A DNA stretch of 5,968 nt from a virus (lineage: Duplodnaviria; Heunggongvirae; Uroviricota; Caudoviricetes), in the IMG/VR virus record IMGVR_UViG_2778261214_000006. One strand, given 5' to 3'. Shown piece by piece: positions 2,665 through 5,968 of this stretch. A program made the translations under genes and the position numbers. Each line of letters starts with the position of its first letter. The first letter of the stretch is position 1. Under the pieces are notes generated by a model. That model was not told where the DNA came from. It saw nothing but the letters and a program-made list of their open reading frames with translations, and did no database searches.

Positions 2665-2954
2665 TGGCTAACCTACGCAAAGAATCTCGCGGCAGAGAAT
2701 GCCAGGTACGTATTTACGGCATATGCAATGGCAATCCTGAAACTACAGTTCTGGCACATTACCGGATGGCTGGAATTTGCGGAACGGGAATGAAGCCTGA
2801 CGACCTGATCGGCGCATGGGCTTGTAGCGCGTGTCACGATGAAATCGACCGACGCACCCATAACCTCGACAACAAAGACGCCAGACTTTACCACCTCGAA
2901 GGCGTGATCAGGACGCAGGCGATACTGCTGAAGGAGGGGAAGATTAAGTCATGA
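2664..2954 (+). CDS. ybcO: YbcO-like (DUF1364-type) putative metal-binding nuclease
   Basis: 96-aa ORF; TAATG overlap with the upstream stop and GGGAGG at 7-nt spacing. The product MANLRKESRGRECQVRIYGICNGNPETTVLAH...CSACHDEIDRR... has the conserved Cys/His pattern of DLP12 YbcO as I recall it, and lies immediately upstream of rusA as in DLP12/82-type nin regions. Confidence 0.75.
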   Translation: MANLRKESRGRECQVRIYGICNGNPETTVLAHYRMAGICGTGMKPDDLIGAWACSACHDEIDRRTHNLDNKDARLYHLEGVIRTQAILLKEGKIKS

Positions 2955-3313
2955 ACGAATATCAGTTTGTGCTTCCATACCCGCCGTCGGTGAATACCTA
3001 CTGGCGAAGACGGGGAAGCCAATACTACATCAGCGATAAAGGCCAGAAATACCGAAAAGACGTTCAGCAAATCATCCACCAACTCAAGTTAGATATTTTC
3101 ACCAAATCACGACTCCGCATCAAAGTAATCGCAGACGTTCCAGACTCCCGCCGCCGCGACCTAGATAACATCCTGAAGGGTTTACTCGACTCCCTTATCC
3201 ATGCCGGATTTGCGGAAGACGACGAGCAATTCGATGACATTCGCGTAATTCGTGGTGTGAAAGTACCAGGCGGACGGCTTGGAATAAAAATCACCGAACT
3301 GGAGAACGCATGA
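2951..3313 (+). CDS. rusA: Holliday junction resolvase RusA (crossover junction endodeoxyribonuclease)
   Basis: 120-aa ORF; ATGA overlap with the ybcO-like stop. The N-terminal LPYPPSVNTYWRRRG, the central DVPDSRRRDLDNILKGLLDSL (catalytic Asp cluster region) and the C-terminal GGRLGIKITELENA are characteristic of RusA. Confidence 0.9.
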   Translation: MNEYQFVLPYPPSVNTYWRRRGSQYYISDKGQKYRKDVQQIIHQLKLDIFTKSRLRIKVIADVPDSRRRDLDNILKGLLDSLIHAGFAEDDEQFDDIRVIRGVKVPGGRLGIKITELENA

Positions 3314-3498
3314 ACGCCACAATTCAAACGATACCAGAGCTTCTTATCCAGACACGAGGCAATCAGACCGAAGTGGCGAGGATGCTTTCCTGCGCAAGAG
3401 GAACAGTGCTCAAGTACAACCGAGACAGCAAAGGCGAGCGTCATGTAATAGTTAACGGCGTCCTGATGGTCAAACAGGGCAAGAGGGGAAGACGATGA
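3310..3498 (+). CDS. ninH: NinH-like small DNA-binding protein
   Basis: 62-aa ORF; ATGA overlap with the rusA stop and GGAG at 5-nt spacing. The core ...GNQTEVARMLSCARGTVLKY...VIVNGVLMV resembles lambda NinH (...GNQTEVARRLKCSRGTVRKY...AIVNDVLMV) as I recall it. Confidence 0.7.
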   Translation: MNATIQTIPELLIQTRGNQTEVARMLSCARGTVLKYNRDSKGERHVIVNGVLMVKQGKRGRR

Positions 3499-3584
3499 GA
3501 CTCGAAAGCGTAGCTAAATTTCATTCGCCAAAAAGCCCGATGATGAGCGACTCACTACTGGCCACAGTTTATTGGTTTTCGTAA
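3495..3584 (+). pseudogene. Q: Truncated N-terminal remnant of a lambda-type Q antiterminator gene
   Basis: ATG 3495 overlaps the ninH stop (ATGA). The first ~20 codons (MRLESVAKFHSPKSPMMSDS) match my recollection of the lambda Q N-terminus. The frame then diverges (LLATVYWFS) and stops at 3582-3584, so about 90% of the gene, including the zinc finger, is absent. Confidence 0.5.
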
Positions 3585-3626
3585 CTGAGTCATTTTATTA
3601 TTTTATTGCAACTTTTAATCTTTTAT

Positions 3627-3676
3627 AGTGCGAAATAAATGGAGCTGGCATTCATTTCGCACTTTATGTTTTTGTT
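3627..3676 (+). terminator. Inverted repeat with downstream T-rich tract; candidate terminator at the early-operon/accessory-gene junction
   Basis: 10-bp inverted repeat AGTGCGAAAT (3627-3636) / ATTTCGCACT (3654-3663) with a 17-nt loop, followed on the + strand by TTATGTTTTTGTT. The loop is long for a canonical intrinsic terminator, so this is a weaker call than the other two. Confidence 0.35.
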
Positions 3677-3709
3677 GGACTTATGTTATTTTGATTGAAT
3701 TCAATTCAG

Positions 3710-4669
3710 TTAAAAAAAGAAGGTGATTGCTCCATTTATAAATGAATAGTCATCCCCTGTCTTGAATTCTGATGTTACTTTATTAAATGCTAGTGTGAAG
3801 GCTACAGGTGCATACCCAATTGTTGCGCCAACTTGATATTCATCAACAGTTTTGTTTAGCGATACTGTTGTTTGTTTCGTCTGTATTGTTTTTCCTTCGA
3901 GAGTATAGTTGCGATTGACATCTCGTCTTTCCATACCTGCAAAAATCTTGTATTTGAATCCGCTTGTATCGGACATATGCATTAAACCACGGGGAGCCAG
4001 CAGACCAAAGCCATTATCCGAATTGAAGGTTTTATCATTACCAATGGCAATGGTTGCGCCATATGCTACATATTGAAATAAGTTTCCAGTAACAGCAGAA
4101 ACTTCAGGGTATAATCCAACATTAGCACCTAAAATATCCATACTTGGTGTCATGGATAGCATCCCTTTTACAGTATAACCGTAGCGATTCTCTATTTGAT
4201 CATCCCATGCATGATATTTTTCTGCCCCAATAATCTCATGAGCTTTATTTTGTACTTTCTGACCGCCTGCGTCGGGGCCAACAACACCTATGTCAGTACC
4301 TAATCGATAGCGAATCCAGTCATTCGCAAGGGAGTTCCATTCAATACCAGTGTGAGTGTATGCACTAAAAGCTCTGTCTCCAGTTACAGCTGTGTTGTGT
4401 CTTTTATTACTGCCTGATGGAGAGTAAATATCTTGCGCAATATGGAGAGATAATTGGCTCGAGTCTGAGATATCGTGGCTATATCCCAGAAATAAGCCTT
4501 GTGAGTAATCATCTCTGTTTTCATGTTTATTGCCATAAATATCATTAAGTATTGGTTGAAACTTCCCTGCATCATCATTTGCTAATGATAATGCAAGGCT
4601 GTTCGCGATAGCTGAACACGTGGTAAATGACAGAGCAATAAAGACGCCAGCGATGACACTTTTTTTCAT
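3710..4669 (-). CDS. lpxR: Outer-membrane beta-barrel protein, LpxR-like lipid A 3'-O-deacylase (accessory/moron gene)
   Basis: 319-aa ORF on the minus strand. The N-terminal Sec signal MKKSVIAGVFIALSFTTCSAIA ends in an AxA cleavage motif, and the C-terminus ...NGAITFFF is the aromatic terminal signature of outer-membrane beta-barrels. The predicted mature N-terminus NSLALSLANDD places Asn-Asp at positions 9-10, matching my recollection of the LpxR catalytic N-terminus. SD AGGAAG lies 10 nt upstream of the ATG. The gene and flanks are visibly more AT-rich than the nin genes. Confidence 0.7.
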   Translation of the reverse strand: MKKSVIAGVFIALSFTTCSAIANSLALSLANDDAGKFQPILNDIYGNKHENRDDYSQGLFLGYSHDISDSSQLSLHIAQDIYSPSGSNKRHNTAVTGDRAFSAYTHTGIEWNSLANDWIRYRLGTDIGVVGPDAGGQKVQNKAHEIIGAEKYHAWDDQIENRYGYTVKGMLSMTPSMDILGANVGLYPEVSAVTGNLFQYVAYGATIAIGNDKTFNSDNGFGLLAPRGLMHMSDTSGFKYKIFAGMERRDVNRNYTLEGKTIQTKQTTVSLNKTVDEYQVGATIGYAPVAFTLAFNKVTSEFKTGDDYSFINGAITFFF

Positions 4670-5144
4670 ATGTTATTGTCTTCCTTTTTTTTGAATGGTG
4701 CGCGTATTTTACATACATGAGTTTGTAATACAAGGTGCGTAATCAATATGATGTTTTATAATTGCGTGAGACAATTGATTTATTCGTTTTTTATTGCGGT
4801 TTTTATTATCTTTTAATGTAACGGTGTTTTTATTAAGTGTGTTTGTGTGGTGTTTTATGTTTTTTATAATTTTTATTTTATTAAATTTAAAAGCATTAGT
4901 AATGGCTATTCTATATAGCAATATAAGAACTGTTACAAAAAAAGGGGGGGCAATTACAGGTAGTTATGGATGATGAGTGAAACAGATATTGGAGAACCGG
5001 GGAATGAATGATGTCTGAGTCTTATATATCAGAACTCCTTCGCTGTCGCTGGGGGCTCCTGTGCTTATGTCGTTTCCCCGATTCGGTTTTGAACGATTAC
5101 CGAATGTTGAAGAATTATGCCAAAATATAGAAAGGATTTACTGC
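4670..5144. promoter_or_regulatory. AT-rich divergent intergenic region: expected lpxR promoter/5' leader and upstream region of the replacement Q
   Basis: Roughly 475 bp without a convincing ORF; 4690-4930 is extremely AT-rich with many T-runs. It must contain the promoter for the minus-strand gene that starts at 4669. No individual -35/-10 pair could be assigned confidently by eye. Confidence 0.4.
4937..4950. repeat. Abutting homopolymer tracts A7 then G7
   Basis: AAAAAAAGGGGGGG read directly at 4937-4950 in the intergenic region. A T8 tract also lies at 4685-4692, just upstream of the lpxR-like SD on the minus strand. Confidence 0.5.
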
Positions 5145-5834
5145 ATGAATACCCAATATTTACAGTATGTTCGTGAGCAACTTATGGCAGCTACTGCTGA
5201 CTTGAACGGAGCAACGAAAGGCCAGCTCGAAGCCTGGCAGGAGCATGCACAATTTGATACTGGTACATACAAACGAAAGAAGCCGCGCATTCTGGATGTG
5301 GTAACTGGCAAGATGATTACGCTGGATAATACGCCGACTTCCGGTAAGCAGTCGTACGCAAAAGGTTCATCCATTGCTTTGGTCAGCCCGGTTGAATTCT
5401 CAACCTCTTCATGGCGCCGCGCGGTTTTGTCTCTCGATGAACATCAGAAAGCATGGTTGCTTTGGTGTTACAGCGAAAGCGTTCGATGGGGGCATCAGGT
5501 CACCATAACGCAATGGGCATGGAGCGAGTTTAAAGATTTGTTAAGTAACAGAAAAATTGCAGGTAAGACACTGGATCGCCTGAAGACGTTAATCTGGCTG
5601 GCTGCACAGGATGTGAAGAGCGAACTTGCAGGGCGTGAGGCCTATGAATACCAGACACTGGCATCATTGGTGGGAGTGACAACAAAAAACTGGTCCGAGA
5701 CATTTACTGAACGCTGGGTTGCAATGAAGCACATTTTTCTACAGCTTGATAGTGATGCTTTATTGCTTGTGACGAGAACACGTTCAAAACAAAAGGCAGC
5801 ATTTTTACAGCAAAATATTGCAAAACTGGATTAA
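5145..5834 (+). CDS. Late-gene antitermination protein Q of the non-lambda (QuuQ/82-like) family
   Basis: 229-aa ORF from ATG 5145, with AAAGGA 8 nt upstream. The ORF track extends to GTG 5061, but that start lacks an SD. The product (MNTQYLQYVREQL...EFSTSSWRRAVLSL...WLLWCY...TQWAWSEF...LQQNIAKLD) resembles Qin-prophage QuuQ-type Q proteins as I recall them and lacks the Cys4 zinc finger of lambda Q. A strong promoter and terminator lie immediately downstream, as expected for Q. Confidence 0.65.
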   Translation: MNTQYLQYVREQLMAATADLNGATKGQLEAWQEHAQFDTGTYKRKKPRILDVVTGKMITLDNTPTSGKQSYAKGSSIALVSPVEFSTSSWRRAVLSLDEHQKAWLLWCYSESVRWGHQVTITQWAWSEFKDLLSNRKIAGKTLDRLKTLIWLAAQDVKSELAGREAYEYQTLASLVGVTTKNWSETFTERWVAMKHIFLQLDSDALLLVTRTRSKQKAAFLQQNIAKLD

Positions 5835-5846
5835 AAGCCATATACT
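5818..5846 (+). promoter_or_regulatory. pR'-like late promoter (sigma70)
   Basis: TTGCAA (5818-5823), a 17-nt spacer, then TATACT (5841-5846): a near-consensus -35/-10 pair overlapping the last codons of Q. The predicted start site is near 5853. Confidence 0.55.
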
Positions 5847-5857
5847 TCATGCAAATT

Positions 5858-5866
5858 TGGTATGTT
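5858..5866 (+). promoter_or_regulatory. Extended -10-like element in the initially transcribed region (candidate sigma-dependent pause / Q-engagement site)
   Basis: TGgTATGTT at 5858-5866, i.e. TGn followed by a -10-like hexamer at about +9 to +14 of the predicted pR' transcript. In lambdoid late promoters such elements hold sigma70 to create the pause at which Q loads. Confidence 0.35.
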
Positions 5867-5882
5867 GTAAAAAATGTATAAA

Positions 5883-5906
5883 CCCGCTGCCGAGTGGGTT
5901 TTTTTT
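5883..5906 (+). terminator. Rho-independent terminator (tR'-like), about 30-50 nt downstream of the predicted pR' start
   Basis: Stem CCCGCT (5883-5888) / AGTGGG (5893-5898, with one G-U pair) around a GCCG tetraloop, followed by T8 (5899-5906). Confidence 0.6.
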
Positions 5907-5968
5907 ATGCCCTGAGTTGTACTTGTACGGTAAACATGCTGGCTGCTATGTAATAGAGTTTTTTTAGC

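Follow-up and report, generated by a model that had tools for sequence, protein, structure and literature searches.

The described systems that are closest to the locus analyzed here are the late switches of phages 82, lambda and 434. In phage 82 (X92588), rus lies directly upstream of orf45, a homologue of ylcG, and orf45 is followed by Q; neither an lpxR cassette nor a remnant of a lambda-type Q gene is found in this arrangement. The Q-binding element (QBE) of such switches is situated between the −35 and −10 elements of the late promoter, pR′ (PMC4914094). In the published geometry of 82 pR′, an extended −10-like pause element ends at +14 and a U occupies +25; a GCC at +15–17 is reported to be needed for efficient pausing. 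A swap of Q, the late promoter and the lysis genes as one block has been documented for phage 434B (PMC9119081), with the crossover between 434B and DLP12 mapped to codons 34–39 of ylcG.

The window examined in this study is the whole 5,968-nt stretch of viral DNA recorded in IMG/VR as IMGVR_UViG_2778261214_000006. It represents the nin-to-late-switch region of an O26-type EHEC lambdoid prophage and has a close relative in the right arm of phage 434 (GenBank OL657226), to which it is 99.4% identical over positions 3484–5968. Both have a short, lambda-type Q fragment (the “stub”), the junction that ends it, lpxR, ylcG, Q, the promoter and the terminator. They differ in what precedes the stub: ninI (a Ser/Thr phosphatase gene) in the lambda-like nin region of 434, but YbcO-rusA-ninH in the window. 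In addition, an 8-bp repeat at window positions 3594–3609 has one copy fewer in 434. It is very likely, in our estimation, that the stub is the scar of a single, old rearrangement, that the 82-type late switch to its right is a working one, and that the block has spread since. The features that enter into this account are as follows.

3310..3498, plus strand: ninH, the last intact nin gene (PF06322, 2e-24)
3495..3584, plus strand: the stub, a 29-codon pseudogene of lambda-type Q (derived from Q over 3495–3565)
3556..3572, no strand: left junction zone, where lambda Q homology fades into low-GC foreign DNA (alignment with lambda Q)
3566..4998, no strand: low-GC lpxR moron cassette of 1.43 kb between both homology breakpoints
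3627..3663, no strand: strong hairpin, with the stub to its left and the lpxR stop to its right (fold z = −4.1; 15-bp stem on the minus-strand RNA)
3710..4669, minus strand: lpxR, an intact gene for an outer-membrane lipid A 3′-O-deacylase (PF09982, 3FID)
4670..4998, minus strand: AT-rich region upstream of lpxR with a predicted promoter (−35 at 4936–4931, −10 at 4913–4908; consensus scan)
4999..5011, plus strand: right junction, formed by the final ~12 nt of a rus of the 82 type, in which the ylcG ribosome-binding site lies (alignment with X92588)
5008..5130, plus strand: ylcG-like small ORF, homologue of phage 82 orf45 (NF033498, 7e-13)
5145..5834, plus strand: intact Q82-type antiterminator gene, 229 aa (PF06323, 1e-91)
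5818..5846, plus strand: late promoter pR′ (−35 TTGCAA at 5818–5823, −10 TATACT at 5841–5846; 9/12 matches, 17-bp spacer)
5853..5877, plus strand: initial transcribed region (inferred +1 at ~5853)
5880..5908, plus strand: intrinsic terminator, the tR′ equivalent (9-bp stem, then T8; fold z = −2.6)

The ORF of the stub translates as MRLESVAKFHSPKSPMMSDSLLATVYWFS; the N-terminus of lambda Q, with which it was compared, reads MRLESVAKFHSPKSPMMSDSPRATASDS. Twenty of 20 amino acids are identical, and A23 and T24 match as well. At the DNA level, the 61 bases of 3495–3555 match the start of lambda Q without exception, eight of the next ten (3556–3565) agree, and the likeness is gone by ~3572. Everything past codon ~24 of lambda Q is missing, including lambda pR′ and the core domain that defines PF03589 (lambda Q residues ~113–199, with the zinc-binding CxxC motifs), and the ORF itself matched no Pfam or NCBIfam family. 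Its start codon shares an ATGA with the stop of ninH. The same coupled start and the same 61 nt (20 codons) are found in lambda Q and at the ninH–Q boundary of HK620/HK97-type phages, and the ninH–stub junction (3300–3565) is 98% identical to the ninH–Q junctions of HK620-type phages. Because these 61 consecutive identical bases occur at a syntenic position directly after a nin gene, chance cannot account for the arrangement. The first-pass annotation had recognized the N-terminus of lambda Q in an ORF coupled to ninH, with a breakpoint guessed near 3555; the identification and the coupling both hold, and the alignment with lambda Q places the breakpoint at 3556–3572. Judged by its sequence, the stub is a pseudogene fragment of a lambda-type Q and not a member of PF03589. 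The scar is already known from annotated sequences, namely phage 434 and hundreds of genomes of pathogenic E. coli: OL657226 labels it a lambda Q N-terminal fragment, and RefSeq/PGAP marks it as a pseudogene.

The intact Q gene begins 1,560 bp beyond the stop codon of the stub. Its product scored 306.8 bits against PF06323 (cut-off 25), spanning model positions 1–216 of 220, and is identical to phage 82 Q at 203 of 229 positions (89%); both proteins have 229 residues, and no gaps were needed. It is collinear with Q82, which has been studied experimentally, and is neither truncated nor frameshifted. No similarity between it and lambda Q (PF03589) was detected, and the PDB holds no sequence match for it. 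Indeed, a complete, unrelated, 229-residue Q of the 82 type had been proposed to lie ~1.6 kb downstream of the stub, and all parts of that proposal agree with these data. QuuQ of the Qin prophage presumably belongs to the same family as phage 82 Q (PF06323).

Does the late promoter belong to this Q? The −35 element of pR′ lies within the Q ORF, and the Q-binding spacer (5824–5840) crosses the Q stop codon. The initial transcribed region contains an extended −10-like pause element, TGgTATGTT, at 5858–5866 (+6 to +14), and a pause is predicted at T5877 (+25), as in the published geometry for 82. At +15–17, however, the window and phage 434 have GTA, whereas three 82-like relatives (L014, L048 and L057) have the pause element TGaTATTTT followed by GCC. 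The GC-rich GCC element of the 82 pause is thus absent from the window, which retains the G at +15 alone, and pausing may differ from that in 82 for this reason. The comparison with 82 pR′ was made with its published geometry and with the 82-like relatives. The terminator also differs from that of 82-type sequences; the same element is annotated as a terminator in phage 434. Diverged 82-type modules can be aligned with the window from ylcG through +14 of pR′ and no further. The Q-linked block therefore ends at +14/+15, such that inheritance with Q extends to promoter, Q-binding site and pause element but not to the terminator or the context of the pause site. The position of the −35 element inside Q, the spacer over the Q stop and the limit of alignment at +14 all accord with the earlier contention that Q and its promoter/qut site move together.

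On the left side of this unit, homology to phage 82 resumes at ~4999–5000 (X92588 alignment; megablast). Apart from the ~12 nt of rus at 4999–5011, neither lambda pR′, phage 82 rus nor the 3′ end of lambda Q has left recognizable sequence in the flanks of the cassette. It is probable that ylcG serves as the right-hand recombination handle. A boundary similar to that of the 434B/DLP12 crossover, in which a Q and promoter block was likewise exchanged with its left crossover in ylcG, occurs in two other loci (L034 and L037), where homology to the window is lost at 5135. The diverged Q82 alleles likewise point to exchange on the right-hand side. The 434B/DLP12 event was homologous, recent and scarless; by contrast, the stub junction is an old one, formed without homology or by microhomology.

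Between the two junctions is DNA of a different character. Morons, as Juhala and Hendrix are said to have described them in 2000, are cargo genes of deviant GC content that are expressed by the lysogen in lambdoid phages. The GC content of the cassette is 0.28 in its flanks (including the AT-rich region upstream of lpxR, 4670–4998) and 0.39 in lpxR, vs. 0.46–0.48 in the backbone; it falls from 0.48 to 0.28 across the left junction. The steps in composition at 3566 and 4999 coincide with the homology breakpoints, as they would for a moron. The “lpxR-like cargo” of the first-pass annotation can now be named with more assurance: the protein matched PF09982 at full length (7e-40, residues 10–318) and the solved Salmonella LpxR structure 3FID (4e-153, residues 24–319), and it is intact. 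Like morons, lpxR is a low-GC gene that is flanked by phage functions on both sides and read from the opposite strand, and it is a virulence-associated gene that is expressed in EHEC, where it is reported to be activated by Pch and Ler (PMC6393859). A candidate promoter precedes it, and a hairpin follows its 3′ end. Unlike typical morons, it sits in the early-to-late regulatory path, where phage transcription towards Q would cross it antisense. Among 50,697 phage records, only 434 and 434B contain the cassette, even when distant blastn matches are included.

The putative control elements of lpxR were further scrutinized. The predicted promoter is a single, consensus-level site on the minus strand; promoter-like sites in this region did not exceed those in shuffled sequences. 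An A7G7 tract at 4937–4950 lies upstream of the gene, and the length of the homopolymer differs among copies. The hairpin at 3627–3663 has its better stem on the lpxR strand. On the plus-strand RNA the stem is broken, but a U-rich tail comes after it; the strand on which the hairpin acts is therefore ambiguous, and no canonical U-tailed terminator was found at the 3′ hairpin on the lpxR strand. The SNPs that occur in it among copies are confined to the loop. The hairpin probably marks where the lpxR transcript ends and also hinders rightward transcription. We also considered whether the stub–lpxR or lpxR–ylcG spacers encode the small RNA PasD, as a 2026 preprint linked PasD1 and PasD2 to LpxR and Q neighborhoods. 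This candidate was rejected: neither the window nor the sequence downstream of it gave a match to Rfam STnc100. According to the preprint, PasD adjoins a sialate esterase gene, and that neighborhood falls outside the window.

The junction between stub and lpxR is by no means specific to the window. It was present in 53 of 53 viral contigs (IMG/VR) and in 620 of 5,426 complete E. coli genomes (11%), and its sequence was identical in every copy examined. The lpxR cassette, at ≥99% identity, was found in the same number of E. coli genomes (620). Given these equal counts, the junction looks like one old scar that is tied to the lpxR cassette. Two nin contexts precede the stub in the IMG/VR contigs, the ninI type in 29 and the ninH type in 22, and each is also found before an intact lambda-type Q (in lambda and in HK620-type phages, respectively). 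Most of the diversity of the cassette occurs in the ninI context, and the ninH copies form approximately one haplotype group. Because the ninI–stub arrangement (in a context as in lambda and 434) holds nearly all of the diversity, it is probably ancestral, and the ninH–stub coupling in the window probably arose by a secondary exchange. A SNP of the ninH type is also found in a few ninI copies, and thus more than one exchange, or an exchange in the opposite direction, is possible.

Such a distribution provokes the question of whether the stub is a genuine, conserved small gene, encoding a micropeptide or acting in translational coupling so that ribosomes come off before the hairpin. It is nearly invariant in the 620 genomes and 53 viral contigs, and the ATGA coupling to the upstream gene is kept in both the ninI and the ninH contexts. 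However, the stub is no more conserved than the noncoding DNA adjacent to it, as the whole cassette is at least 99% identical among copies. The few SNPs in it (two synonymous, two non-synonymous) are too few for a test of selection, it matches no protein family, and both the PGAP pipeline and the annotators of 434 call it a fragment. Its first 61 nt are those of lambda Q, and its tail is what results when the reading frame runs on into AT-rich foreign DNA until it meets a stop codon. We regard a functional small gene as very improbable. Still less credence can be given to the notion that misassembly or chimerism of this contig produced the stub–lpxR junction: the abrupt change in composition is all that would suggest it, and it is refuted by phage 434 DNA sequenced from purified virions and by hundreds of closed genomes, all of which have the junction.

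A more serious alternative concerns the order of events. In a stepwise origin, lpxR would have entered into or beside a lambda-type Q, a deletion would then have removed the 3′ part of Q and pR′, and the 82-type Q unit would have been joined separately. The two separate junctions (3556–3572 and ~4998), a cassette composition unlike that of either flank and a right-hand Q unit that can be exchanged alone through ylcG all comport with this scheme. Yet the flanks hold no trace of the lambda Q 3′ end or lambda pR′, and no intermediate was encountered: lpxR of this type was never found without the stub or next to an intact Q in any of the 5,426 E. coli genomes and 50,697 phage records, in IMG/VR (55 loci) or among the GTDB representatives. 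The GTDB representatives yielded one Citrobacter locus at 73%, and relatives of LpxR at 71–73% occur in unrelated contexts with no Q nearby, such as the tail-fiber region of L059. We view a stepwise origin as possible but rather unlikely. As no intermediate or parental form was found, the order and number of events are what we infer from the present-day arrangements. The first-pass annotation had posited that a lambda-type Q and its promoter were replaced in a single recombination by an 82-type Q and the lpxR cargo; the replacement is upheld, and the 82-type Q and lpxR may have arrived in one step.

Under the preferred reading, a single rearrangement, the events and workings of the locus may be reconstructed as follows. 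A rearrangement at 3556–3572, occurring once and long ago in a ninI–Q context like that of lambda and 434, would have taken away the rest of a lambda-type Q and its promoter and left in their place the lpxR moron and an 82-type ylcG-Q-pR′ unit. What remained of the old gene, roughly its first 24 codons fused to foreign low-GC DNA, is presumably non-functional as a protein. The block would later have spread among prophages by homologous recombination, in which the ~71-bp stub supplied homology on the left and ylcG, or sequence beyond it, supplied it on the right. N-antiterminated rightward transcription would proceed from the nin genes through the stub, the hairpin and 1.4 kb antisense to lpxR before reaching ylcG and Q. 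The Q82-type protein would then bind between the −35 and −10 elements of the adjacent pR′, load onto RNA polymerase at a sigma70-dependent pause near +25, and allow readthrough of the terminator at 5880–5908 into the late genes. The lysogen would express lpxR independently, by transcription of the opposite strand.

By itself, the finding carries little weight, as it constitutes ordinary lambdoid mosaicism: Q is exchanged together with its promoter/qut site, and a pseudogene scar lies at the old boundary. Nonetheless, the prophage-borne lpxR cassette of EHEC/EPEC lineages (O157, O55, O26, O111 and O145) can be located precisely, and with a simple search, by means of the scar. The path that transcription is predicted to take towards Q, across a hairpin and a 1.4-kb antisense virulence gene, could couple lpxR expression and prophage induction. 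More tentatively, and with only modest expectation that it is correct, we suggest that the 71-bp stub may be a portable left homology arm that, with ylcG as the right arm, moves the lpxR moron and the Q unit attached to it. If so, any prophage with a lambda-type Q start would be a target, whatever its nin region, and carriage of the stub would be favored via the mobility of the cassette. Such a role could explain how one junction came to follow nin regions of two unrelated kinds and to be present in 11% of the complete genomes of E. coli.

Finally, the region around pR′ was inspected for additional elements. A CII box/paQ is present at 5810–5823, but this one match compares with 0.52 expected by chance and was not taken as evidence. 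From its sequence, pR′ is predicted to yield a constitutive RNA of ~55 nt that is ended by the terminator. The sole match in an Rfam scan of the window fell on this pR′–terminator RNA; it was to STnc240, at 28 bits vs. a gathering score of 55, and may be taken as a hint.

The window is the nin region plus late-switch region of a lambdoid prophage. An ORF list and a Pfam scan of the window gave the following layout:

793-1203, ninB
nin region, ninE, ninF and small ORFs
1942-2664, KilAC/Rha antirepressor-like gene (Pfam scan), inside the nin region with ninF on one side and YbcO on the other
2664-2954, YbcO/DUF1364
2951-3313, rusA
3310-3498, ninH
3495-3584, plus strand, the stub, a 29-codon ORF
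3710-4669, minus strand, LpxR, 319 aa
5008-5130, YlcG-family ORF (NF033498), 40 aa
5145-5834, Q, 229 aa

The nin region also holds an unassigned 147-aa ORF (1337-1780) and a 118-aa ORF without a Pfam match (465-821). Prophages in O26:H11-type EHEC chromosomes are 99.8% identical to the whole window.

The first-pass annotation had described a truncated lambda-type Q followed by an intact Q of another family. Indeed, the translated stub, MRLESVAKFHSPKSPMMSDSLLATVYWFS, can be compared with the N-terminus of lambda Q, MRLESVAKFHSPKSPMMSDSPRATASDS, and alignment to the 5' end of the lambda gene showed 61 of 61 nucleotides to be identical at 3495-3555. Point differences follow at 3556 and 3559, then a matching GGCCAC; no similarity is left by ~3572. 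Approximately 24 of the stub's codons are therefore Q-derived, and past them the frame enters foreign DNA and ends at the first stop. The 8/10 match beyond 3555 could represent either Q sequence carrying two mutations or a microhomology through which the join was made; as judged from the alignment, the breakpoint would fall somewhere in 3556-3572. The downstream Q belongs to PF06323 (1e-91), as opposed to the PF03589 of lambda Q, which it failed to match in BLASTP; it is 89% identical, with zero gaps, to the Q of phage 82. The earlier observation is thus confirmed in all details, and its interpretation is supported. The stub is a dead lambda-Q fragment without predicted function: an ordinary recombination scar in a familiar type of mosaic, already annotated in both the GenBank record of phage 434 (OL657226) and RefSeq PGAP, the latter labeling it an incomplete antitermination-protein pseudogene.

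Beyond the scar, 3566-4998 is compositionally foreign: GC content is 28% in the two non-coding flanks and 39% in lpxR, compared with 46-48% in the phage backbone. The lpxR gene, on the opposite strand, is intact, and the Salmonella enzyme of solved structure (3FID) is a close match (4e-153). According to a review (PMC6393859), Pch and Ler regulate EHEC lpxR together with the LEE, and the gene modifies lipid A. Homology to phage 82 (X92588) starts again at ~4999, where ~12 nt represent the end of the 82 rus and contain the orf45/ylcG ribosome-binding site. The cassette flanks were searched for the lambda Q 3' end, lambda pR' and rus, and no remnant of these was found.

How widespread is this arrangement? 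Phage 434, sequenced from virions (PMC9119081), is 99.4% identical to the window from 3484 to the window end. In IMG/VR, all 53 contigs with LpxR at least 95% identical carry the stub at 99–100% with an identical junction sequence. Among 5,426 complete E. coli genomes, the junction occurs in 620, and the cassette at ≥99% identity likewise in 620; the lineages include O157:H7, O55:H7, O26, O111 and O145. Among 50,697 phage records, the cassette is present only in 434 and 434B. Because stub and junction are shared in IMG/VR, E. coli and 434, we conclude that they go back to a single ancestral scar that is fixed to the lpxR cassette. The lpxR gene and the Q82 unit could have arrived jointly via one illegitimate crossover or stepwise; no intermediate arrangements were found among IMG/VR, the 5,426 E. 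coli genomes, GTDB representatives and the 50,697 phage records.

There are signs of secondary exchange on both sides. In 29 viral contigs the stub follows a ninI-type gene, like that of lambda and 434; in 22 it follows a ninH-type gene, like that of the window. Both types also precede intact lambda-type Q, with ninI-Q in lambda and ninH-Q in HK620-type phages. Similarity between the window and 434 begins just 11 nt ahead of the stub start, and nearly all cassette diversity resides in ninI copies, the ninH copies forming approximately a single haplotype group. Most simply, the truncation would first have happened in a ninI-Q phage, and the block would then have moved into a ninH-Q phage by homologous recombination in the ~71-82 bp of common Q 5' sequence. 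On the right, ylcG is a documented crossover site (434B/DLP12; PMC9119081), the 434B/DLP12 Q belonging to a third family, PF06530. A right boundary at ylcG also occurs in two related loci (L034 and L037), and further contigs carry Q82 alleles 89-96% identical.

The intact Q82-type gene is accompanied by a matching promoter, pause element and terminator:

5818-5846, predicted sigma70-type pR', TTGCAA-17-TATACT, its -35 hexamer within the Q reading frame
5880-5908, terminator, 9-bp stem and T8 tail, also marked as a terminator by the 434 annotators

The pR' spacer, where the Q-binding elements of lambdoid phages are situated (PMC4914094), crosses the Q stop codon. Given an inferred +1 at 5853, TGgTATGTT lies at +6 to +14 and T5877 falls at +25. 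In the 82 pR' as published (PMC5001585), an extended -10-like pause element reaches to +14; GCC at +15-17 and an AT-rich stretch come next, and pausing is at U+25. Three diverged relatives (L014, L048 and L057) look like true 82-type sites, because they have TGaTATTTT and then GCC. Alignment of the window and phage 434 to these relatives extends from ylcG as far as +14, and all similarity is gone at +15 (5867). Late modules of the window/434 type and those of the true 82 type cease to be homologous exactly past the sigma-dependent pause element. In the window, GTA stands in place of the pause-supporting GCC of 82-type sites, a real difference. The Q 3' end is physically interleaved with the promoter, the Q-binding site and the pause element, which are inherited with Q; this supports the proposal that Q and its site move as a unit.

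By established lambda biology, N would make rightward early transcription termination-resistant, and Q expression would need passage over the stub, a hairpin and antisense lpxR; Q would then load at the pR' pause and allow readthrough of 5880-5908 to the late genes. Constitutive synthesis of a ~55-nt RNA from pR' is expected in the lysogen, where lpxR would be expressed from the AT-rich DNA upstream of it. The hairpin (3627-3663, 15-bp stem) lies between the stub and the lpxR stop. Its stem is perfect, with one G-U pair, in the lpxR-strand RNA (z = -4.1) and interrupted in the other; its U-rich tail (3664-3677) is on the plus strand, opposite to lpxR. SNPs between copies are confined to the loop. 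It could terminate lpxR transcripts, halt rightward phage transcription, or do both.

Rfam gave a sub-threshold match to STnc240, an enterobacterial sRNA (5841-5910; 28 bits vs. a gathering score of 55), which coincides with the predicted pR'-to-terminator RNA; short pR' RNAs of Stx phages are described as known regulators in PMC7547250. The terminator's T-run (5901-5908) ranges from 7 to 9 T across copies. On the minus strand, a CII-box, TTGCAATATTTTGC (5810-5823), shares bases with the pR' -35 where Q ends and is paQ according to the 434 annotators; the single match is within chance expectation (0.52). A 2026 preprint places the Hfq-bound sRNAs PasD1 and PasD2 around a sialate esterase gene, in >98% of cases no more than 10 kb from LpxR and Q; an Rfam search downstream of the window (L005, ~15900-18500) returned no family at gathering score.

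An 8-bp tandem repeat (TTTTATTA/TTTTATTG, 3594-3609) is present in the window and all IMG/VR copies, with one copy only in phage 434. The best predicted lpxR promoter (minus strand; -35 4936-4931, -10 4913-4908) has an A7G7 homopolymer (4937-4950) immediately upstream. The length of this tract varies between IMG/VR copies, which could reflect either assembly noise or phase variation in a virulence gene. Divergent LpxR homologues (71–73% identical) occur elsewhere, in L059 (835-1794), L060 and L061 (4001-4957). One site adjoins IS fragments and tail-fibre genes in a prophage of another type, and one lies in a Citrobacter chromosome without Q nearby; phages have thus captured lpxR more than once.
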